A stretch of 64,000 bases of DNA, taken from Patescibacteria group bacterium. GTDB lineage: Bacteria; Patescibacteriota; Microgenomatia; JAMCYU01. This document shows, piece by piece, positions 3,364 to 60,382 of the stretch (within the stretch, counting starts at the first letter, position 1; every line of letters starts with the position of its first letter). The notes beneath the pieces are model-generated. The model made no database searches, was not told the DNA's origin, and was given only the letters and a program-made list of their open reading frames with translations. Location of the stretch: positions 1,682-65,681 of the forward strand of contig JAMCYU010000004.1 in NCBI GenBank assembly GCA_023473585.1, given 5' to 3'. A program made the position numbers and the translations under genes.

Positions 3364-6183
3364 ATGTTTAAAAGTGTTTCGTCAAAAGTTAATTTCCCCA
3401 AGCTTGAGGAAGAAATTCTTGAGTTTTGGCAGGAAAACCAAATTTTTGAAAAATCCATAAAGCTTCGGCCGGAAAACAAAACCTGGACTTTTTTGGACGG
3501 TCCGCCTTTTATTACCGGCTTGCCCCACTACGGCAGTTTACTTTCCAGTATCCCCAAAGATGTTTTCCCCCGTTATTGGACGATGAAAGGCTATCGGGTA
3601 AGAAGGGTTTGGGGCTGGGATTGTCACGGTTTGCCGGCGGAAAATAAAGTCGAAGAGAAATTAAAGATTAAAAGAAAACGGGACATTGAAGAAAAAGTCG
3701 GGGTCAAAAAATTCATTGACGAGTGCAAAAGTTATGTTCAAAATGTTTCTCATGATTGGGAATGGTACGTTGACCATATCGGCCGCTGGGTTGATTTTCG
3801 TCATGCCTATAAGACCATGGATTTGTCATACATGGAAACGGTGATGTGGGTTTTTCAGCAAATGTATAAGAAGGGTTATGTCTATAAGGGCTTGCGCATT
3901 TCTTTATATTGTCCTCATTGCGTGACGCCGATTTCCAATTTTGAAGTCGCCATGGATGCCGATAATTACAAAGACCTTACTGAACCAACCGCGGTTTTCA
4001 AATACGAGTTGCAAGATCAAAAAGACACCTATTTTTTAGCCTGGTCAACGACACCCTGGAATAAAATTGCGACCATGGCTTTGGCCGTTAACCCAAAACT
4101 TAAATACGTTAAGGTTAAACAGGGTCAGGAAAAATATATTCTGGCCAAAGAGACAATGGCGATTTTGAAGGATGAGACCTACGAAATTCTTGAAGAGTTT
4201 GAGGGCACCAAGCTTCTTGAGCAAAAATTTGTGCCGCATTACGATTTTTATCCCATCAAAAAAGACAAAAAAGCTTTTCTGGTTTTGGGCGGGGATTTTG
4301 TGACGGCGAATGAGGGGACGGGCATTGTGACGATTGCCGCTTACGGCGAGGAAGACTTAAGCCTTATGCTTAAGGAGAACGTCCAAATTGTTCTGCATGT
4401 TGACGAGGAAGGGATCGTGAAAAAAGAGGTGCCGAAATGGGCCGGGAGGTACTACTTGGACGTTGATCCTTTGGTCGTTGAAGATCTAAAATCCCGAAAT
4501 CTTATCTATCGCGTTGACCATTATACTCATAGTATCCCAACGTGTTGGCGCTGTCACACGCGTCTTCTTTATGTTCCCCAAAACGCCTGGTATGTCAACA
4601 TCGCGAAACTTAAAGGCAGGATGAAAAAAACCAATGAGTCGGTTAACTGGTTTCCGAAGCATTTTAAGTACGGCCGTTATCTTAAGAGTTTAGAAATGGC
4701 TCCTGACTGGTGTATTTCCCGGAGCCGTTATTGGGGTTCGCCGGTGCCTGTCTGGGAATGCGTTTGCGGGGAGCGTTTTGTTCCCGGTTCGATTGCCGAA
4801 CTGGAAAAAGCTTCGGGCGTTAAAATCAAAGACCTTCATAAACCCTTAATTGACGAAGTTACCGTTCCCTGTCAAAAATGCGGTCAAAAAGCCAAGCGCG
4901 TGCCCGAGGTTTTGGACAGCTGGATTGAAGCCGGGTCAGCCTCTTTTGCCGAGCGTCATTATCCTTTTAACAAAGAGATTAAACTGGAGGATTTTTTCCC
5001 GCCGGATTTTATTGTTGAATATACCGGTCAAATAAGAGCCTGGTTTTACGTTCTCCATGTCATCGCCACGGCTCTTTTTGATTCTGTGGCCTTTAAAAAT
5101 GTCGTTGTCACCGGCGTTATTTTAGGGACCGACGGCCGGAAAATGAGTAAAAACTACGGTAATTATCCTGACCCTAAAGAAATGCTGACGAATTTCGGGG
5201 CAGACGCCCTGCGTTTGTATCTTATGGGCAGTCCGGTTATGAAAGGCGAGGATATCAGAATTTCCGCGGAAGAATATCGGGATCAAGTCCGGGGTTTAAT
5301 GCTGATTTTATGGAATGTTTACAGCTTTTTTATAAGTTATGCCAATCTTGACAAGTGGTTTCCTGTAAAAACAAAATTTTCCGTAAAAGCTGATAATGTT
5401 TTAGACCAGTGGATTCTTCGTCTTCTTAATAGTTTAATCAGTAATCTAACCAAGGATTTGGAATCATACAACACTGTTTCGGCGGTTCACGAAATTGAAA
5501 TTTTTGTCGCTAACCTTTCGACCTGGTATTTAAGGCGTTCAAGGGACAGAGTCGGCCCTGCGGCTCATGAAAAAGACGATAAAAGGGCTTTTTACGAAAC
5601 TCTTTATGAAGTCTTGGTGACTTTAGCCAAATTAATGGCTCCTCTGACGCCCTTTTTAGCTGAAGAGATCTATAAGAATTTAACCGGGGAGGAGTCGGTT
5701 CATTTAAAAGACTGGCCCTCCTTCGCTCAAGCTTCGGAAGGGCAAGCCCCATTGATTTCTAATATGGACTTGGTCCGGAAGATTTGTGAATTGGGACACG
5801 CCGAAAGAAAAAAGCTGGGGATTAAAGTGAGACAGCCGCTTGGCCAATGCCAAGTCGTAGATGCCGAATTGCCGATCGCCGGTGATTTACAGCAACTTAT
5901 CAGGGACGAATTGAACGTTAAAGAGATTGTCATCAAGGTCGGCAAGGGGGAATTAAGAGTCGAGTTAGATTCAGAAATAACCCCGGAACTTAAGGCCGAA
6001 GGAGAAGCCAGGGATTTTATCCGCCAAATTCAGGAATTAAGAAAGGAAAAAAATTGCCGGATTGATGAAGAAATCACCATTTATGCTCCGTCATGGCCGA
6101 AAGAATACGAAGCTTATATTAAAGAGCAAACTTTAGCGAAAAAAATCGTATGCTCAGAATTTTTAAAAATCTCGACTGGTTAA
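3364..6183 (+). CDS. ileS: isoleucyl-tRNA synthetase, type 2 (eukaryote/archaeal-like)
   Basis: PPFITGLPHYG (HIGH-region variant of type-2 IleRS) and the KMSKN motif; 939 aa. Confidence 0.9.
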   Translation: MFKSVSSKVNFPKLEEEILEFWQENQIFEKSIKLRPENKTWTFLDGPPFITGLPHYGSLLSSIPKDVFPRYWTMKGYRVRRVWGWDCHGLPAENKVEEKLKIKRKRDIEEKVGVKKFIDECKSYVQNVSHDWEWYVDHIGRWVDFRHAYKTMDLSYMETVMWVFQQMYKKGYVYKGLRISLYCPHCVTPISNFEVAMDADNYKDLTEPTAVFKYELQDQKDTYFLAWSTTPWNKIATMALAVNPKLKYVKVKQGQEKYILAKETMAILKDETYEILEEFEGTKLLEQKFVPHYDFYPIKKDKKAFLVLGGDFVTANEGTGIVTIAAYGEEDLSLMLKENVQIVLHVDEEGIVKKEVPKWAGRYYLDVDPLVVEDLKSRNLIYRVDHYTHSIPTCWRCHTRLLYVPQNAWYVNIAKLKGRMKKTNESVNWFPKHFKYGRYLKSLEMAPDWCISRSRYWGSPVPVWECVCGERFVPGSIAELEKASGVKIKDLHKPLIDEVTVPCQKCGQKAKRVPEVLDSWIEAGSASFAERHYPFNKEIKLEDFFPPDFIVEYTGQIRAWFYVLHVIATALFDSVAFKNVVVTGVILGTDGRKMSKNYGNYPDPKEMLTNFGADALRLYLMGSPVMKGEDIRISAEEYRDQVRGLMLILWNVYSFFISYANLDKWFPVKTKFSVKADNVLDQWILRLLNSLISNLTKDLESYNTVSAVHEIEIFVANLSTWYLRRSRDRVGPAAHEKDDKRAFYETLYEVLVTLAKLMAPLTPFLAEEIYKNLTGEESVHLKDWPSFAQASEGQAPLISNMDLVRKICELGHAERKKLGIKVRQPLGQCQVVDAELPIAGDLQQLIRDELNVKEIVIKVGKGELRVELDSEITPELKAEGEARDFIRQIQELRKEKNCRIDEEITIYAPSWPKEYEAYIKEQTLAKKIVCSEFLKISTG

Positions 6184-7643: not shown

Positions 7644-8811
7644 ATACATTTTTGTTCTTGGGAGAACCGGCGATCTTTGTCGTTGGGAGTTGGTCAGTGT
7701 TCTCGCCAGAAAGAAAATCTCCTACCAGACGATTTTCTCGTCTTCGGACATTTTTCATCTTTCCACCACCACACCTCTTGATTTAGGGGTACTTATGGGG
7801 ATACTTGGGGGAACGGTTAAAATTGCCGAAGTCTTCGGTAAAATTGAAAATTCTAACGAGAACTCTTTGATTGACAAAATAATCTCTCATTTTCAAGAAA
7901 CGGAAGAAAGGAAAATTATTTTTGGTTTAAGCGGCTATCAGACTGTCAGCTTTCATGTTTTAAAACAATGGAACAAAAGCGTTAAGGAAGGATTGGAAGA
8001 ATTAAATTTAATAGCTAGATATCTTTTGCCTACCGAGGGGACAACTCTTTCTTCGGTGGTTCTGAAGAAACAAAAAGCCAGAGAAATTCTTGTGGTTGGG
8101 GAGGGCGAAAATTTTGTTTTGGCCCAAACTTTGGCGATTACGGATTTTGAAGATTGGGGGAAGAGGGATTTCGGCCGGCCCGCCGTTGATCCCGGCCACG
8201 GCATGTTGCCTCTTAAGGTGGCCCGGATGATGATTAATCTGGGCGGCTCGGAATTTCACGTTCCGAATTCGGAATTATCCCTTCTTGATCCCTTTTGCGG
8301 GGTAGGGACGATTTTACAAGAAGCCATGTTTTTGGGCTTTAAAGTTTTAGGCAGCGATCAAAGTCGAGAAGCTTTGGAAAAAACAAGAAAAAACCTCGAT
8401 TTTTTAAAAAATAATTTTAAACTTCAAAATCCAAACGATCAGCTTTTTCAACTGGAAGCGACCCAATTAACTCAAAAAATACCGAAAGAGTCAATTGACC
8501 TTATTGTTACCGAGCCTTATTTGGGACCGATGGAGGGGGAAACTCAAAACCTAAAAAATATCATTTTGGGTTTAGAAAAACTTTATCTTGGTTGTTTCCG
8601 CGAGTGGCTGTCCCTTTTGACAAATGATGGCAAAATCGTCATCGCTTTGCCTTCTTTTAAAGTCGGCAACCAGCAAATTTTCGTGAAAAAACCCATTGAC
8701 ATCTGTGAAACCTTGGGCTATACTCTTTTCGCCGGACCGTATCCGTATAGTCGGCCACAGGCTAGAGTTATTAGAAATATTTATATCTTAAAAAAACATG
8801 GCTCACATTAA
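7636..8811 (+). CDS. THUMP-MTase-like SAM-dependent RNA methyltransferase (Trm11/RlmL-like, UPF0020)
   Basis: N-terminus [14 protein letters not shown] resembles the UPF0020/Trm11 start. C-terminal MTase motifs LDPFCGVGT and [10 protein letters not shown] (a DPPY-type motif IV). It sits between rplU and rpmA. Confidence 0.5.
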
Positions 8812-9060: not shown

Positions 9061-9873
9061 ATGGCCGACGAACCGACTACCGAACTGGAAATTAATCTTT
9101 TGGAACCAAATCCTCTTCAGGCGCGCGCTGTTTTTACGCAAGAATCTTTGGAAGAATTAAGCAGTTCGATTAAAGAGCACGGCGTTTTGGAACCCATAAT
9201 CGTGGCTAAAACCCCAGCCGGTTATCAGATTATTGCCGGTGAAAGACGCTGGCGGGCCTCGAAATTAGCCGGTTTAAAAAAAGTCCCCGTGGTTATTAAA
9301 GAAACGACCAGCAAAGGGATGCTCGAGATGGCTTTGGTTGAAAACGTGCAACGAGAAGACTTAAATCCGATTGACCGAGGTCAAGCCTTTCAAAGGTTAA
9401 TTGATGAATTCGGCTTGCCGGTTTCGGAAGTCGCCAAGAGAATCGGGAAGAGCGAATCCTATGTTTCCAACACGATGAGACTTCTGAATTTGCCCGACGC
9501 GATTAAGGATGGTTTAATTTCCGGAGCAACGACCGAAGGACACGCGCGAGCGATCTCCGGTTTGGGCGAGACGAAATTAATGGTTGAGGCTTACAAGATT
9601 TTATTGTCGGAAAACGCTTCGGTTCGAAGAGCCGAAGAATTGGCTCGAAAAATGAAGGCCCAAAATTCTCAAGGTCCACGGGGAGTGACGGCCAAGATTT
9701 ACAGCGATGAATTAGAAAAAATGGAACAGGACATTACCGCCAAAATTGACGGAAAAACCAAAGTGAAAATTACGCAATCAAGCACCAGTGCCCGGTTGGT
9801 TATTGTGATCACCGAAAACAGAGTTAAAACAACGGAGCTTCTTCGGGATATTCACCGGAAATTAACTTCTTAA
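9061..9873 (+). CDS. parB: ParB/Spo0J-family partition protein
   Basis: ParB box IIAGERRWRASKLAGL and an HTH region. Confidence 0.8.
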   Translation: MADEPTTELEINLLEPNPLQARAVFTQESLEELSSSIKEHGVLEPIIVAKTPAGYQIIAGERRWRASKLAGLKKVPVVIKETTSKGMLEMALVENVQREDLNPIDRGQAFQRLIDEFGLPVSEVAKRIGKSESYVSNTMRLLNLPDAIKDGLISGATTEGHARAISGLGETKLMVEAYKILLSENASVRRAEELARKMKAQNSQGPRGVTAKIYSDELEKMEQDITAKIDGKTKVKITQSSTSARLVIVITENRVKTTELLRDIHRKLTS

Positions 9874-10424
9874 TACTTAACGTTGGCCAAAATTCCTAAA
9901 TTCGGTGGAGGCCAATATTTGAGCCAGGCTTTGCCGATAATGTCTTCCCGAACCACGGTTCCCCAGTCCCGAGAGTCGGAACTGTAAGGGCGGTTATCGC
10001 CTAAGCAAAAATATTCGTTTTCGCCGACCGTATATTCTTTACCTTCCGGTAAAAAGGAGCCGGGAGAAGTGATCCTTCCTTGAAGATAATCTTCTTTAAG
10101 TTGTTGGCCGTTTATAAAAACTTTGCCGTTAGTAATTCTGATCTTATCTTTGGGTAAGCCGATAATTCTTTTAATGTAATCTAATTCACGATTTTTAGGC
10201 GCCCGAAAGATAACAATATCGCCCCGTTTTGGGGGACTGAAACGATAAGAGATTTTATCGGTTAAAATATATTCGGCGTCGTGAAAATTGGGTTCCATCG
10301 AGCTTCCCTTGACCTGGTGCGGTTGAAAAAAGAAAAGGTAGCCGACGACGAAAATCGCCATGGCGACGACGAAAATCTCGATTAAATCAAAAAAGAAGGT
10401 CGTGAATTTTTTTATAAGCTCCAT
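9870..10424 (-). CDS. lepB: signal peptidase I
   Basis: GSSMEPNF (Ser box), RGDIVIF, KRIIGLPKD and GDNRPYSSDSRDWG. Confidence 0.85.
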   Translation of the reverse strand: MELIKKFTTFFFDLIEIFVVAMAIFVVGYLFFFQPHQVKGSSMEPNFHDAEYILTDKISYRFSPPKRGDIVIFRAPKNRELDYIKRIIGLPKDKIRITNGKVFINGQQLKEDYLQGRITSPGSFLPEGKEYTVGENEYFCLGDNRPYSSDSRDWGTVVREDIIGKAWLKYWPPPNLGILANVKY

Positions 10425-10483: not shown

Positions 10484-10555
10484 GGGTGGTTAGCTCAGCG
10501 GTAGAGCGCTACGTTCACATCGTAGAAGTCAATGGTTCGAATCCATTACCACCCA
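10484..10555 (+). tRNA. tRNA-Val (anticodon CAC)
   Basis: Cloverleaf folded by hand: acceptor GGGTGGT/ACCACCC, D GCTC/GAGC, anticodon stem CTACG/CGTAG with loop TTCACAT, T-loop TTCGAAT. No encoded CCA. Confidence 0.8.
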
Positions 10556-10747
10556 CTAATTTATTTTCTTGTCTCCGGATGGATCTTACGGCCATTTTGC
10601 TTTTGAACAAAAACTGTTTCTTTTAAAGGCTTGCTGGGCGGCTTTACTCCCGGCCTTTTTTCATGATTAGACATTTTTTCCTTTCCGGACAGAATTAGAT
10701 GATTGTAGTCCATTATGATTAATAGTCAAGGGGAATTTTTTAATTTT

Positions 10748-10773
10748 GATACCATGATTTAAATCATAGTATC
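10748..10773. repeat. 26-bp palindrome copy 1 (gataccatgatttaaatcatagtatc)
   Basis: Near-perfect inverted repeat centred on TTTAAA, upstream of a candidate promoter and the ORF at 10866. Confidence 0.7.
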
Positions 10774-10789
10774 AGGAGAAGGAATATTT

Positions 10790-10817
10790 TTGACAAACAA
10801 TGATTTAGTGCTATAAT
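10790..10817 (+). promoter_or_regulatory. sigma70-like promoter TTGACA-N16-TATAAT
   Basis: Consensus hexamers at 10790-10795 and 10812-10817, upstream of the ORF at 10866. Confidence 0.45.
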
Positions 10818-10865
10818 ACAACCCAAACACAAGACTTTTTAATTAACCGATTTATAAAAACAATT

Positions 10866-11333
10866 ATGAACATAAGACACGAAACAGAAACTGGACAATC
10901 CGGACAAAGACGAAAACCTGTATTGCCAGGTTTTCCTCTATCTCCCAGAAAACCAGGAACTGGAGAAGCCCTTCCTAGTCGCCAAAGTCTTAGAGAAAAT
11001 AATGTTATTTTAAGAATATATATGCCGGCTTATGGGCAAATTGCCCAAAGGCTGACGGAAGAAGGGTTGGGAAAATACAGCGTAAGAGAAACAAGAGAAC
11101 AAATTACTCCTTATGGGCAACCTTTAACAAATCCTCTTTTGGTTGTGGTTCGCTTCCGAGGTCAGAAAGATTGGGGACCATTTTGGCAGGTAGCTTATCC
11201 GACAAAAAGAGCCATTGATGAAGCCTATAGGCAAGGCAAAGGACAATCAGAGATCAATAAAATAGTTGAGGAGAGGATACAAGTAGGAATCAAATCAGTA
11301 GCAACACTGCAACAAACGAGGAAATCAATATAG
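10866..11333 (+). CDS. hypothetical protein (orphan, 155 aa)
   Basis: ORF bracketed by palindrome copies. No recognisable domain and no SD; the start is uncertain. Confidence 0.35.
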   Translation: MNIRHETETGQSGQRRKPVLPGFPLSPRKPGTGEALPSRQSLRENNVILRIYMPAYGQIAQRLTEEGLGKYSVRETREQITPYGQPLTNPLLVVVRFRGQKDWGPFWQVAYPTKRAIDEAYRQGKGQSEINKIVEERIQVGIKSVATLQQTRKSI

Positions 11334-11422
11334 ATTCGGTTTATAAAAACCTTCCCAACTAAATTTTAAAGCCACTCTTCTTCGAAATTCTTATACTTAC
11401 AGAATGTTTTTCCTCCACCTTT

Positions 11423-11448
11423 GATATCATGATTTAAATCATAGTATC
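11423..11448. repeat. 26-bp palindrome copy 2 (gatatcatgatttaaatcatagtatc)
   Basis: 24/26 identical to copy 3. Lies immediately upstream (8 nt) of the ORF at 11456. Confidence 0.7.
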
Positions 11449-11455
11449 GGGAGAG

Positions 11456-11884
11456 TTGATGTCCTGCTGTTTTTATGGTATAAGATTTGGCGTGACTGAT
11501 CTTGAAAACGAAACTGCTCCTCGTCAGGTAAAATATGCTCTTTTTGCCCATGAAAGGGGAACCGATTACTATGTTTTAGTTACAGAGAATGGGAATTTGC
11601 TGGCGTGCGGCCAGGAATTGATAGAGAGGCTTAGATTTTCCGAGAGTTTAATTTCTTTTGATACAGTTGCTGAAAATATACTTAAACAACAAGAAGAAGC
11701 TGAAAGAATGAAGATAGTTCCACCGGGTACCGTACCAGATCACTTTGCAAGACAAATAAAGGGTCTTCTTGAAGATGCTCTTCGCCTTCTGGATTTGCCG
11801 CCCAAGGAAAATGTTGACTTTTTCAGTTTACCGCAAGATATTGTAGAAACCCTTCATTGGACCCCAAGACAAAAAACGAAATAA
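11456..11884 (+). CDS. hypothetical protein (orphan, 142 aa)
   Basis: ORF between palindrome copies 2 and 3, preceded by gggagag. No recognisable domain. Confidence 0.4.
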   Translation: MMSCCFYGIRFGVTDLENETAPRQVKYALFAHERGTDYYVLVTENGNLLACGQELIERLRFSESLISFDTVAENILKQQEEAERMKIVPPGTVPDHFARQIKGLLEDALRLLDLPPKENVDFFSLPQDIVETLHWTPRQKTK

Positions 11885-11910
11885 ATTATCTCATTAATTC
11901 ACCTTGTTTT

Positions 11911-11936
11911 GATACCATGATTTAAATCATGGTATC
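11911..11936. repeat. 26-bp perfect palindrome copy 3 (gataccatgatttaaatcatggtatc)
   Basis: Perfect dyad symmetry, 27 nt after the stop of the ORF at 11456..11884. Confidence 0.75.
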
Positions 11937-12108
11937 AGGAATCTTCCTTGGGATTCTCCGGATCAAAATCCACAAGGCCGAAGCCTGAGCCCTTTTTAGT
12001 TAGTTTATACTTTATGGTTCTTGACACCCTATAGAAAATTATGTTAATGTTGGTCTTGTGAAAAACTATTGGGAAAAAATTAGTATTTCACGAAAAAACA
12101 AATTAAAG

Positions 12109-12130
12109 ATCCGCCAGTGGGCGGATTTTT
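12109..12130 (+). terminator. rho-independent terminator
   Basis: atccgcc-agtg-ggcggat followed by ttttt. Confidence 0.5.
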
Positions 12131-12163
12131 AATGGAAATTTTTAAAAAGAGAGGGGGTGAAAA

Positions 12164-33074: not shown

Positions 33075-34508
33075 ATGAATTTAAATGATTTAACCGTTCA
33101 GGAAGCAATTTTCGGTTTAACCTCTAAAAAGTTTTCCGCCAGAGAGGTTACCTCGGCGTGTCTGGAACAGATTAAAAAATTAAACAAAGAAATCAAGGCC
33201 TATCTTACCATTAGTGAAAAAGAGGCTTTAGAAGCGGCGGAAAAAAGCGATCAGGAACGAAGGGAAAACCCTCTTTTAGCTCAAGAAAAGCCCCTTTTAG
33301 GGATTCCGGTTGCCCTTAAAGACCTTTTTTGCACTAAGAACATGAAAACAACGGCGGCATCCAGGCTTTTGAAAGATTATTTTCCCCAATATGACGCGAC
33401 CGTCGTTTCGAAACTGAAAAAAGCCGGAGCCGTCATTTTAGGGAAAACCAATTGTGACGCCTGGGCTCACGGTGCCAGCGGCGAAAATTCCGATTTTGGT
33501 CCGACAAAAAATCCCTGGAACAAACAACTCGTGCCGGGCGGGTCTTCTTCCGGTTCGGCCGCGGCCTTGATTAGTTCTCAGTGTCTGGCAGCCACCGGAA
33601 CCGATACCGGCGGTTCGGTACGACTTCCGGCCGCTTTTTGCGGCGTGGTGGGTTTAAAACCGACTTACGGCCGAGTTTCCCGTTACGGGATTATCGCTAT
33701 GGCTTCATCCATGGACGCGATCGGTCATTTTACCAGAACGGTTTATGACTCGGCTCTTCTTTTAAAAGTCACGGCCGGCAAGGATAATTTTGACGCGACG
33801 ACACCAAACGTCGCCACGGAAAATTTTACCGCTTCTCTTGATCGGGGAATTAAGAACCTAAAGATTGGTATTCCCAAAGAATATTTTGGCAAAGGAATTG
33901 ACCGAAGAATTGAAGAAACAATTAAAAAGGCCGTGAAAAAACTGGAGGCCTTGGGAGCCAAAATTATTGAGGTGTCTTTACCTCACACCGAATATGCCCT
34001 GGCCGTTTATTATATCATTCAACCGTCAGAGGTCTCCTCGAATTTAGCCCGTTACGACGGGATTAGATTCGGACTAACGAGAGACGAATTCGGCGACGAA
34101 GCGAAAAGAAGAATCATGTTGGGAACATACACGCTTTCGGCCGGTTATTATGATGCCTATTATTTAAAAGCGATGAAAGTCCGAACGCTAATTAAAAAAG
34201 ATTTTGCCGAGGCTTTCAACAAAGTTGATGTTCTGATTGCGCCGACTTCACCAAATCTTCCCTGGAAACTAGGTGAAAAAGTCGCCGATCCTTTAAAAAT
34301 GTATCTGGCCGACATCTTAACGGTAACGGCTAATTTAGCCGGTATTCCGGGGTTGTCTTTGCCTTGCGGCTTTGTGGAAGAAAAGGGTTGTCAGTTGCCG
34401 GTGGGAATGCAGATTTTAGGTCCCCATTGGTCGGAAAAATTATTGTTTCAGGTCGGACATGCTTATGAACGAGAAACAAACTTTTTTAAAATCAAACCCA
34501 AATTATAA
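33075..34508 (+). CDS. gatA: Asp/Glu-tRNA amidotransferase subunit A (amidase signature)
   Basis: Amidase signature GGSSSGSAAA; 477 aa. Confidence 0.9.
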   Translation: MNLNDLTVQEAIFGLTSKKFSAREVTSACLEQIKKLNKEIKAYLTISEKEALEAAEKSDQERRENPLLAQEKPLLGIPVALKDLFCTKNMKTTAASRLLKDYFPQYDATVVSKLKKAGAVILGKTNCDAWAHGASGENSDFGPTKNPWNKQLVPGGSSSGSAAALISSQCLAATGTDTGGSVRLPAAFCGVVGLKPTYGRVSRYGIIAMASSMDAIGHFTRTVYDSALLLKVTAGKDNFDATTPNVATENFTASLDRGIKNLKIGIPKEYFGKGIDRRIEETIKKAVKKLEALGAKIIEVSLPHTEYALAVYYIIQPSEVSSNLARYDGIRFGLTRDEFGDEAKRRIMLGTYTLSAGYYDAYYLKAMKVRTLIKKDFAEAFNKVDVLIAPTSPNLPWKLGEKVADPLKMYLADILTVTANLAGIPGLSLPCGFVEEKGCQLPVGMQILGPHWSEKLLFQVGHAYERETNFFKIKPKL

Positions 34509-34517
34509 TTATCGGTT

Positions 34518-34537
34518 TGATACTATGATTTAAATCA
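34518..34537. repeat. partial copy of the 26-bp palindrome (tgatactatgatttaaatca) overlapping the gatB start
   Basis: 19/20 match to the left arm plus centre of the 10748/11423/11911 palindrome. Confidence 0.5.
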
Positions 34538-35887
34538 ATGAATCAAACAAAGCTAAAAGTAAACAAAAAAACAAAATATCTGCCGATTATAGGTTTGGAG
34601 ATTCATGTGGAGTTGAAAACCAAGTCCAAGATGTTTTGTGGCTGTTCGGCCGATTATTTTGGTCATGAACCCAACAGCCAGTGTTGTCCGATTTGTTTGG
34701 GTTTGCCGGGAGCCTTACCTTTTCCTAACAAAAAAGCGATTAGAGACTGTTTAGTAATCGGCCTGGCCTTAGATTGTCAGGTTGTCGAGACTTCGCAATT
34801 TGACCGGAAAAACTATTTTTATCCGGATTTAGCCAAGGGTTTTCAGATTTCCCAATACGCAAACCCCTTTTGTCTTAACGGAAAATTGGGAGAAATTCGG
34901 ATTCGTCGGGTCCACATGGAAGAAGACACCGGCAAGCTTTTACACGCCCAAGAAGGGACACTGATTGATTTTAATAGAAGCGGCGTGCCTTTGGTGGAGA
35001 TTGTGACCGAGCCCGATCTTCATACCGCTTCGGAGGCTAAAATTTTCCTGCAAAAACTTCAGCAAATCATCCGTTACTTAGGCGTTTCTGATGCGGATAT
35101 GGAAAAGGGGAGTATGCGTTTGGAACCGAATATTTCCTTAATAAAGACCAATACTACCAATAAATACCAATTACCAAGTTATAAAGTCGAGGTTAAAAAT
35201 ATCAATTCTTTTAAGTTTGTCGAAAAGGCCATTAATTTTGAAATTGAAAGACAACAGGCATTATTGGAAAAAGGCGAGGTTATTCATCAGGAAACCAGAA
35301 GATTTGACGCCGATAAAGGTTTAACGCTCCCCCAGCGGAGTAAAGAGGAGGCTAAAGATTATCGCTATTTTCCGGAACCGGATATTCCGCCCATCAAATG
35401 GACAAAAGAAGAAATTAACAATCTTAAAAATAAAATCCCGGAATTACCGGAAACCAAACTTAAGCGCTTTATAAAAGAGTACGGGCTTTCGGAGTATGAC
35501 GCCACGATTTTGACGGTTTCCCTAGCGGTTGCCGATTATTTTGAAGAAAGTATTAAGTATTTAGTATCAAGTATTGAGTCTAAAGAGATAACGCCAAAAA
35601 TCATTGCCAATTGGCTTATTAATAAAAAAGTTGATATTGATAAAAACTCACCAGAAGATTTAGTAGAAATGATTGCTCAAAAAAGTCAACAAGCAACAAT
35701 TTCTGACGAAGAACTGGAAAAAGCGACGCTAAAAGTTTTGCTTGACAATCCAAAGGCGGTCAGCGATTATAAAGCGGGTAAAGAGCAGGCCTTAATGTTT
35801 TTGGTCGGTCAGGTTTTAAAAATGGTTAAAGGTCAGGCCAGCGGGGAAGAGATTAAAACATTAATAAAAGAGGAGCTTATAAAATGA
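34538..35887 (+). CDS. gatB: Asp/Glu-tRNA amidotransferase subunit B
   Basis: IGLEIHVELKTKSKMFCGC N-terminus and C-terminal YqeY-like domain. Confidence 0.9.
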   Translation: MNQTKLKVNKKTKYLPIIGLEIHVELKTKSKMFCGCSADYFGHEPNSQCCPICLGLPGALPFPNKKAIRDCLVIGLALDCQVVETSQFDRKNYFYPDLAKGFQISQYANPFCLNGKLGEIRIRRVHMEEDTGKLLHAQEGTLIDFNRSGVPLVEIVTEPDLHTASEAKIFLQKLQQIIRYLGVSDADMEKGSMRLEPNISLIKTNTTNKYQLPSYKVEVKNINSFKFVEKAINFEIERQQALLEKGEVIHQETRRFDADKGLTLPQRSKEEAKDYRYFPEPDIPPIKWTKEEINNLKNKIPELPETKLKRFIKEYGLSEYDATILTVSLAVADYFEESIKYLVSSIESKEITPKIIANWLINKKVDIDKNSPEDLVEMIAQKSQQATISDEELEKATLKVLLDNPKAVSDYKAGKEQALMFLVGQVLKMVKGQASGEEIKTLIKEELIK

Positions 35888-36570
35888 CGGAACAAAACGC
35901 TGAAATTTCTCATGGAAAAAGTATCCCAGAAAGACAAAAACATATTAAAGATCGAATCGATCAAACTAAAAAGTGGCTTGTTGGTTTAAGACAACAAACT
36001 CAAGAAGGTCAATTATCTTGGGAGCAATACGATCATTTAATCGCTAGGGCGATGGTTGCCAGGGAAAGATACGCTGACCTTTCAAGGAGACATTCCCTTA
36101 TAGACAGACTAACGCAAATTCCTAATCGAAGATGGTTAGACTTGGAAATCCAAAGAGAGACGGAAGAAGCCAAGCGTTCCGGACAACCCCTAGGCCTTTT
36201 AATTATAGACATTGATCATTTTAAAAGGATAAACGACCTTCATGGTCACCCTAAAGGTGACCAAGTTTTGCAAGAAACTGCGCGAACTTTACAACAATAT
36301 TCTCGGGCTGAAGATTTTTTAGCCAGATACGGCGGCGAAGAATTTGCCGTTTTAGTTATTAATTCTCAACCGGAAAAACTTTCGGAGATTGCCGAACGGT
36401 TGCGTTTGCAAATAGAAAGATTACAAATAGAAGGTATCTCGCCGCTAACCATCAGCCTGGGTGGCACGTCATTTAAAAAAGGAGAACAAATTAAAGATTT
36501 TTTTGCGAGAGCCGACAATGCCTTATATCAGTCAAAAGAACGCGGAAGAAATAAAGTAACAATTTCTTAA
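35884..36570 (+). CDS. GGDEF-domain diguanylate cyclase (no sensor domain)
   Basis: RYGGEEFAV (GGEEF active site) and DIDHFKRINDLHGH. Confidence 0.75.
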   Translation: MTEQNAEISHGKSIPERQKHIKDRIDQTKKWLVGLRQQTQEGQLSWEQYDHLIARAMVARERYADLSRRHSLIDRLTQIPNRRWLDLEIQRETEEAKRSGQPLGLLIIDIDHFKRINDLHGHPKGDQVLQETARTLQQYSRAEDFLARYGGEEFAVLVINSQPEKLSEIAERLRLQIERLQIEGISPLTISLGGTSFKKGEQIKDFFARADNALYQSKERGRNKVTIS

Positions 36571-59784: not shown

Positions 59785-60094
59785 TGTTCAAAGAAGTGAA
59801 AGTTAGGGCTACCGCGAGAATTTAGAACCTCTATTCAAAAAGGAGTTTCATCACTGACGATGCTTGTTTGCCCTTAGGGCCAGCATTTGACGTTTTATCT
59901 CCAACCTTTTTTTCGTTTTATGTGAGTGGGATTTATGTCGAGCTCCCACTTTGGTATCTTTTCTTGCCATAAACCTCATTATACAACAAAATTTAGATAA
60001 AAGTACATAGTTTGTTGGTAGATTACCAGGGATTTTGGTATAATAAATAACAGTTATACTTTAGAGGAAAGGAGGTTATAGGGCGGTTTGTAGG

Positions 60095-60260
60095 AATACA
60101 AGCGTGGGGCCCCGAGCGGAGCCAAGTCTGACTTGGCGGTGTCGAGGGGAGACGAGGAGGAGGCCATAGGCCAAAGACCTGTGGGATCGGACTTAATTTA
60201 GGCAAAACCTAAATTAAAGTATCTGCGGAAACCTCCAGGTTGGATTAGCAACCTTAAGAA
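60095..60260 (+). ncRNA. candidate glmS ribozyme (GlcN6P-sensing) in the glmS leader
   Basis: GC-rich structured leader containing AGCG...GACGAGGAGGAGG...CTGCGGAAACCTCCAGGTTGG. These resemble the glmS ribozyme core segments (GACGAGGA and GGCGGAUGCCUCCCGG). It lies 120 nt upstream of glmS. Confidence 0.45.
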
Positions 60261-60382
60261 TTTTTTAAAAAACCTTATCGCAAGATAAGAAACAAAGAGA
60301 AATTTAACTAATAACCGCTAAATAAACTTCAATCTTTTATTTTTATTAATTCAATAATTTTCTTCTCTTAAAGGAGGTTTTT

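Follow-up and report, generated by a model that had tools for sequence, protein, structure and literature searches.

Within a 64-kb window of DNA from a Patescibacteria/Microgenomates-type metagenome-assembled genome (MAG), a palindromic repeat occurs three times around two small genes, ORF1 and ORF2, and once more, in degenerate form, at the junction of gatA and gatB. We report that this palindrome is probably the operator of a Microgenomates TrpR/YerC-family regulator (PF01371, YerC/HisR-like), judging by the company that the site keeps in other genomes, where it brackets the gene for that regulator. An operator is an ordinary kind of element; what is new here is the undescribed motif for a TrpR-family operator and the unusual gene-bracketing layout.

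The repeat unit in the window is 34 nt long (TTTTGATACCATGATTTAAATCATGGTATCAGGA), with 91 to 97% identity between copies, and contains a 28-bp dyad, TGATACCATGA-TTTAAA-TCATGGTATCA (Table 1). An earlier note on this DNA had described three copies of a 26-bp palindrome, and a search with that 26-mer, GATACCATGATTTAAATCATGGTATC, did recover it at 10748 (one mismatch), 11423 (two mismatches), and 11911 (exact); when up to three mismatches were allowed, there were no matches in 100 dinucleotide-preserving shuffles. The dyad symmetry seen in the note is thus present and is perfect in copy 3, but the unit proved longer than 26 bp. What the note took for a half-copy at 34518 is likewise present, but as a full, degenerate site, TGATACTATGATTTAAATCAATGAATCA. 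It occupies the 29 nt that separate gatA (stop at 34508) from gatB, overlaps the gatB ATG at 34538, and is similar to the one that follows the regulator gene in locus L076. A relaxed core search of the whole window gave nothing else convincing beyond these four sites, and we agree with the note that the arrangement is not CRISPR-like.

Other genomes were scanned with an exact, slightly degenerate pattern in which positions 13 and 14 from the center were left unconstrained. Among 185,579 species genomes the pattern gave eight loci, all in Microgenomates-type MAGs: six contigs of one Levyibacteriota MAG, one in Gottesmanbacteria, and one in another Microgenomates-type MAG. The metagenome scan gave 58 palindrome loci, and none of the 2.9 million viral contigs scanned contained the palindrome. 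After deduplication, about 45 unique sites from Microgenomates MAGs and metagenomes had unrelated flanks, and therefore it is the site itself that is conserved and not a longer element. This distribution across the Microgenomates is that of a regulon signature, one of the readings offered in the note, rather than a local curiosity.

The 12-nt core TGATTTAAATCA was invariant across lineages; ATGATTTAAATCAT was also invariant in the scan set, but is fixed by the search pattern itself. In a set of 61 unique sites, 97% were symmetric at position 13 and 84% at position 14, and symmetry had fallen to chance level by position 17. The dyad thus reaches 14+14 bp, which exceeds the 20 bp known from TrpR/HisR-family sites. 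The outer positions vary mostly symmetrically, with pairs such as GTTAC...GTAAC, GATACA...TGTATC, CATATT...AATATG, AGTG...CACT, and A7...T7. Because the canonical palindrome has stop codons in all six frames, it cannot lie within genes, and it was typically found in a 20- to 36-nt gap between co-directional genes, where it sometimes gives the upstream stop codon, or between convergent genes.

The gene bracketed at loci with two nearby palindromes encodes a Trp-repressor-family protein (PF01371, E 1e-13; TIGR02531 YerC/YecD), and the palindrome scan led to a PF01371 gene near a palindrome in four independent lineages (Table 1). The regulator family comprises 723 matches of 146 to 151 aa, the named ones coming from Woesebacteria, Levybacteria, and Microgenomates, and its gene stands in conserved synteny, either from the CCA-adding enzyme to SecDF or from Obg to Band_7.

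As a reverse test, six family members (P0088, P0109, P0037, P0025, P0121, and P0055; loci L071, L073, L074, L076, L077, and L078) were picked only for their long contigs, blind to the motif. An exact TGATTTAAATCA was present 13 to 32 nt upstream of the regulator start codon in all six, and in all six a second core copy, with zero or one mismatch, followed 5 to 54 nt after the regulator stop. In L073 and L074, a third core copy follows after one more gene. Across the approximately 106 kb of these contigs, no exact core lay more than 1.3 kb from the regulator gene. Since a 12-mer is expected by chance in a 40-nt window with a frequency of about 1e-5, finding it in 6/6 is no coincidence.

The arms of these sites differ between lineages, the outer-arm types including GATAYC, GTTAC, GATTAA, and an asymmetric CCAT/TTAAAAC form. 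L078 has the variant AATGATTAAATGATTTAAATCATTTAATCATT and L074 has GATACAATG...CATTGTATC, and the regulator-gene sites of L071, L073, and L077 show no palindromy outside the 12-bp core. In the last three loci, which represent one subfamily of the TrpR-like genes, the TTGATT of the core reads as a −35 element, with TAGAAT or TATTAT 17 nt on and the ATG 6 nt later, and therefore an operator at this place would overlap the promoter of a leaderless regulator transcript. TTGATT is readable in this way at positions 9967, 10459, and 11245 of L073, 9967 of L071, and 5857 of L077. A promoter inside the palindrome, for which a −35 (TTGATT) or a −10 (TATCAT) can be read in some lineages, is inconsistent across lineages and was not adopted.

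The regulator itself belongs near HisR. Its family profile matched the HisR/YerC-group structures 3FRW, 3G1C, and 3KOR with E values of 1e-12 to 1e-14, and E. coli TrpR with an E value of about 5e-4. The helix-turn-helix (HTH; K/R-V-S-x-A-T-I/V) is conserved, with the recognition-helix motif S-x-ATI, and the protein carries an approximately 50-aa C-terminal extension. HisR and TrpR are ligand-dependent repressors that recognize palindromes of 20 bp; in roughly half of genomes, such a site stands in front of hisR itself (PMC9413887). The HisR (YerC) regulons known from Firmicutes and further phyla (PMC9413887) share with the system described here the PF01371 regulator, a palindromic, lineage-specific operator, an own site before the regulator gene, and few sites per genome. 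They differ in that the HisR motif is the 20-bp cacTTTAnnnnnnTAAAgtg, whereas here a TGATTTAAATCA core is set in a 28-bp dyad, and in that the regulator here is longer by the extension. In addition, the putative targets here are not histidine genes, these organisms lacking amino-acid biosynthesis; a second site after the regulator stop is the rule; and many sites are squeezed into very short gaps between cistrons.

E. coli TrpR, with its trp, aroH, and trpR operators, is similar in being a dimeric HTH repressor that is subject to autoregulation, but its sequence relation is distant and its consensus, TGTAcTnGTnnACnAgTACA, differs. The operator center is A/T-rich in both trpO and the sites studied here, in which TTAAAT resembles the TTAACT −10 hexamer of trpO. 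E. coli TrpR binds as tandem dimers, and binding of this kind could, by analogy, explain a site longer than 20 bp. In the literature we found no paper with the core sequence and none that combines Patescibacteria with a Trp repressor.

The sites of the window are themselves conserved in relatives. The 788-kb contig JBFOMW010000009.1 (L067) has the same gene order as the window, with copy 1 in the same place and 25/26 identical. Sites 1 and 2, together with the promoter blocks of both ORFs, are kept in L067 and in L068; copy 3 is shared with L068 but not with L067. Protein identity between L067 and the window is 67% for ORF1, 72% for ORF2, 88% for the methyltransferase, and 99% (94% at the DNA level) for ParB, which in the window (9061-9873) lies only 1 to 2 kb from the two ORFs (10866-11884). 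From synteny at 67 to 72% identity against 99% for ParB, it follows that ORF1 and ORF2 are a vertically inherited, fast-evolving pair and no recent insertion. We see them as a conserved pair of genes that are probably members of the regulon, neither mobile nor of the toxin-antitoxin kind.

Several observations weigh against assigning the palindrome to this regulator. No PF01371 gene was found in the 64-kb window when all ORFs were searched with hmmsearch; in other genomes, gene and site share a contig. The earlier note had proposed an operator for a dimeric HTH protein that may be encoded elsewhere; the dyad and the association with the regulator gene agree with this, and the gene itself is absent from the window, so that its existence in the window's genome is what we infer from relatives. 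The core TGATTTAAATCA disagrees with the consensus of TrpR and with that of HisR, and is therefore taken as a new motif of the family, not as the site of a TrpR or HisR orthologue. The genomic contexts (about 10 convergent, 19 co-directional, and 4 divergent) include many that are not classical promoter positions, and the site-adjacent genes have no obvious common function. Arms of up to 17 to 19 nt, or the A7/T7 flanks found in one lineage, look more like a hairpin than like a protein footprint. Neither site 1 nor site 2 of the window overlaps its promoter, both being placed upstream of the −35 element, and the distance from site 1 to the promoter differs by 7 nt in L067. Finally, the more distant relative L069 has ORF2 and its promoter without site 2.

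The alternative that survives best, though we consider it unlikely, is a structural hairpin that needs no dedicated protein and works at the level of RNA or single-stranded DNA, whether as a 3'-end stabilizer like the repetitive extragenic palindromic (REP) sequences, as an intercistronic processing site, or as a terminator. The folding energy of perfect copies is −16 to −18.5 kcal/mol (z-scores near −6.5), the outer changes are symmetric in arms that reach 19 nt, the A7...T7 flanks of one lineage are like those of a bidirectional terminator, and gene ends and the gaps between convergent genes have an excess of sites. However, the loop and upper stem of such a hairpin, TGATTTAAATCA, are invariant across phylum-level lineages, which pairing alone would not demand, and the sites of L071, L073, and L077 are non-palindromic outside the 12-bp core. 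The window copies have only four G-C pairs and no T-run, AGGA or GGGA following directly, and in copies 1 and 2 the sense strand has C-A mismatches. A hairpin would also leave the 6/6 association with PF01371 unexplained, no Rfam family matched at threshold, and the copy number is far below that of REP.

Three related readings were rejected. An intrinsic terminator is at odds with a stem that is weak in G-C and with the missing T-run in the window copies. As for a known RNA family, the best Rfam match was mir-459 at 15.6 bits (E 4.7), below threshold. With six copies in one MAG, one each in two others, and four in the 64-kb window, the palindrome is not a high-copy dispersed repeat of the REP or MITE (miniature inverted-repeat transposable element) type. 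It does resemble REP and bacterial interspersed mosaic elements in being a short, hairpin-capable intergenic palindrome at gene ends and in convergent gaps, but it occurs in units per genome and not in hundreds, has an invariant core across phyla-level lineages, lacks a REP-associated tyrosine transposase, and is tightly linked to the gene of one regulator.

We hold it to be distinctly improbable that the palindrome is a site-specific recombination site with ORF1 and ORF2 as exchangeable cassettes, either dif/Xer-like (11-6-11) or invertase-like (12-2-12), as in pdif modules, integrative mobile elements exploiting Xer (IMEX), or integrons. The 28-bp site can be parsed as 11-6-11, copies bracket single genes or pairs in several genomes, near-identical strains differ from the palindrome edge onward (L047 vs L020; L019 vs L058/L062), and copy 3 is found in the window and L068 and is missing from L067. 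ORF1, ORF2, and sites 1 and 2 are, however, syntenic and have diverged with their hosts at 67 to 72% amino acid identity, and the site-flanked regulator gene also stands in conserved chromosomal synteny. Only one end of each variable segment has a palindrome, and no reciprocal junctions were seen. The core is fully symmetric (TTTAAA center), which would give no directionality, and each genome has several copies. No recombinase gene was noticed beside the sites, although a systematic recombinase search was not made. Xer-dependent pdif modules and IMEX likewise have 28-bp sites parsable as 11-6-11 that bracket one or two genes; the palindrome differs from these in having no established similarity to dif, a symmetric center, syntenic and vertically inherited genes, and no evidence of two-site exchange.

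The strain-variable segments deserve description in their own right. On the minus strand of L047, positions 125 to 802 hold a 225-aa gene with a weak resolvase-type HTH (HTH_7) where the near-identical L020 has 27 nt. In L019, positions 2602 to 2790 are 189 nt long as opposed to approximately 400 nt in L058 and L062 (L058 7367-7765), beside an AbiEii toxin gene. Both segments begin exactly at the palindrome edge, and genes may be inserted preferentially at palindrome borders. About 80 nt from a palindrome site, L020 also has a group I intron (7993-8189; Rfam 75.5 bits) inside tRNA-Met(CAT), which is uninterrupted in a strain of approximately 95 to 99% identity (L015 2037-2106).

The earlier note had also suggested a small autoregulated module, toxin-antitoxin-like or phage-derived; on this reading, to which we give little credence, ORF1 or ORF2 itself would bind the palindrome. 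The three sites do bracket exactly ORF1 and ORF2, the order site-gene-site-gene-site mirrors the TrpR-like locus in L073, and no fold has been assigned to either ORF. Against this, about 45 sites are known as compared with three or four close ORF homologues among 5.8 billion clusters, and sites occur at loci without ORF1 or ORF2, as ORF2 does in L069 without site 2. The two ORFs are syntenic in L067, and neither has an HTH, Pfam, PHROG, or PDB match or, by hhalign, a relation to the TrpR-like profile (probability below 1%), in line with the note's remark that neither has an obvious HTH. A phage origin was rejected, as 0 of the 2.9 million viral contigs contained the palindrome and there were no PHROG matches. 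Least credible of all is a noncanonical parS for the ParB encoded 0.9 kb upstream, for although ParB (9061-9873) is adjacent, no canonical parS with two or fewer mismatches is found in the window, the sites cluster near parB, and the copies per genome are in the parS range, ParB occurs nearby only in the window's lineage among 611 kb of palindrome loci, the sites elsewhere cluster at the PF01371 gene, and the sequence is unrelated to the parS consensus TGTTNCACGTGAAACA.

Returning to the operator of the TrpR/YerC-family regulator, we hypothesize that a dimer, or tandem dimers, would bind the TGATTTAAATCA core together with the lineage-specific outer arms that make up the 28-bp dyad; the sequence features, the conservation across genomes, and the tight association of site and regulator gene are observed, whereas physical binding, the sign of regulation, and the ligand are what we infer. 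At its own gene, the site 13 to 32 nt upstream of the start would cover part of the promoter or of the transcript's 5' end, leading to autorepression, with the second site after the stop. In the window, since no regulator gene is found there, the regulator would act in trans, with three strong sites and a weak one (gatA-gatB) as its targets. Sites 1 and 2 sit immediately upstream of the −35 elements of ORF1 and ORF2, and site 3 would close the pair. The predicted outcome is ligand-dependent repression of ORF1 and ORF2, in which looping or cooperativity between the three sites probably helps. The 7-nt difference in spacing between the window and L067 argues against an activator that depends on the face of the helix.

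The putative targets in other genomes are diverse. Genes for Obg, Exo_endo_phos, and Band_7 proteins keep their sites despite rearrangement (146-aa subfamily; L025, L050, L074, and L078), and genes with a DNA_alkylation domain follow a site in L001 and L071. Directly downstream of sites we also found genes for tyrosyl-tRNA synthetase (TyrRS; L004), tryptophanyl-tRNA synthetase (TrpRS; L037), Maf, DprA, HIT, a GHMP kinase, and an alpha/beta hydrolase. The TrpRS, TyrRS, and gatB sites hint at a link to tRNA charging for a Trp-repressor relative in amino-acid scavengers, which is only a lead. A broader version, which is speculative and which we rate as possible but doubtful, is a Microgenomates-wide circuit that would couple the Trp- and Tyr-tRNA synthetases, GatB, Obg, Band_7, and small, lineage-specific proteins (ORF1 and ORF2 among them) to an amino-acid-type signal, not through single promoter operators but through gene-bracketing operator pairs that act by looping, roadblock, or insulation and possibly also as hairpins and insertion hot spots.

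To our knowledge, almost nothing is known of gene regulation in the candidate phyla radiation (CPR). CPR bacteria cannot be grown in isolation, and their tiny genomes encode few regulators. A conserved regulator with 723 members and a defined 28-bp site would offer a rare testable entry to CPR transcriptional regulation: with a pattern search, one can draw up the regulon of any Microgenomates genome, and ORF1 and ORF2 gain a first functional handle, as they can be treated as co-regulated targets.

Table 1. Palindromic sites and neighboring features in the 64-kb window, followed by sites beside the PF01371 regulator gene at other loci.
Feature	Position	Strand	Remarks
tRNA-Val(CAC)	10484..10556		landmark upstream of copy 1
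Palindrome copy 1	10744..10777	none	28-bp dyad 10747-10774, asymmetric at one C/A position; end lies 16 nt before the −35 of the ORF1 promoter
ORF1 promoter, TTGACA-16-TATAAT	10790..10817	+	12/12 consensus match, sigma-70-type, with TG extension
ORF1	10866..11333	+	155 aa from ATG; no Pfam or PHROG match
Palindrome copy 2	11419..11452	none	end lies 7 nt before the −35-like hexamer of the ORF2 promoter
ORF2 promoter-like block, TTGATG-17-(TGg)TATAAG	11456..11484	+	read from the sequence; GTG start 7 nt later
ORF2	11492..11884	+	130 aa from GTG; mechanical ORF 11456-11884 is 142 aa; no Pfam or PHROG match
Palindrome copy 3	11907..11940	none	perfect 28-bp dyad 11910-11937; 26 nt past the ORF2 stop
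Degenerate fourth site	34518..34545	none	left arm and core intact, three right-arm mismatches
L016/L049 regulator gene			palindrome ends 5-6 nt before the ATG; second copy over the stop codon
L025 regulator gene			palindrome 20 nt upstream
L050/L056 regulator gene			palindrome 20 nt upstream
L065 regulator gene			more distant PF01371 member; nearest palindrome about 1.3 kb away

The genes around the sites in the window run in the order IleRS, FtsW, L21, methyltransferase, L27, ParB, signal peptidase, tRNA-Val, ORF1, ORF2, a secreted 196-aa protein, and glycosyltransferases. The tRNA-Val gene just upstream and the consensus promoter between copy 1 and ORF1 are where the earlier note had placed them. 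In L067, the tRNA-Val of the window type looks degraded (5505-5660), and a different tRNA-Val(CAC) (5552-5626) is located within what is left of it.

The two ORFs had been called domain-less orphans of 155 and 142 aa. They are indeed domain-less, but are not strict orphans, since ORF1 has three close homologues and ORF2 has four; the ORF2 family forms 13 clusters at 50% identity, with proteins of 110 to 142 aa. The coordinates of ORF1 held, and its promoter is conserved in L067; its N-terminal approximately 20 aa are not conserved, so that the true start may lie later than the ATG. The 142-aa frame of ORF2 is present, but its TTG/ATG start beside copy 2 is not kept in frame in relatives. In contrast, the block TTGAxx-17-TATAAG-6/7-GTG is kept in L067, L068, and L069. 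Because this promoter-GTG block is conserved even in the distant L069 and the alternative start is not, ORF2 probably begins at the GTG at 11492, which suggests a leaderless transcript. Its −10 element (TATAAG) is without the final T, and hence was missed by the consensus promoter scan. Structure prediction with AlphaFold2 gave ORF1 a mean predicted local distance difference test score (pLDDT) of 66.7, with no Foldseek fold match at E ≤ 0.001, and ORF2 a pLDDT of 47.5, a model that is unusable; ORF2 had no sequence match in the PDB.

Downstream of copy 3, the next TTGACA hexamer (12021) lies 84 nt away and opens an element on the plus strand (12021-12143), in which a G+C-rich hairpin with a T-run (12102-12133) follows the hexamer by approximately 80 nt. 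The element, which L067 also has, comes just before the Shine-Dalgarno sequence and start codon (ATG, 12164) of the secreted 196-aa protein; its Rfam matches are sub-threshold only. The element may be a leader, an attenuator, or a small RNA. Directly after gatB, positions 35884 to 36570 (plus strand) encode a 228-aa protein with a GGEEF motif (RYGGEEFAVL), diguanylate-cyclase-like by its translation alone. Further along, positions 60090 to 60314 of the plus strand hold a full-length glmS ribozyme/riboswitch that scored 67 bits against a gathering score of 37.

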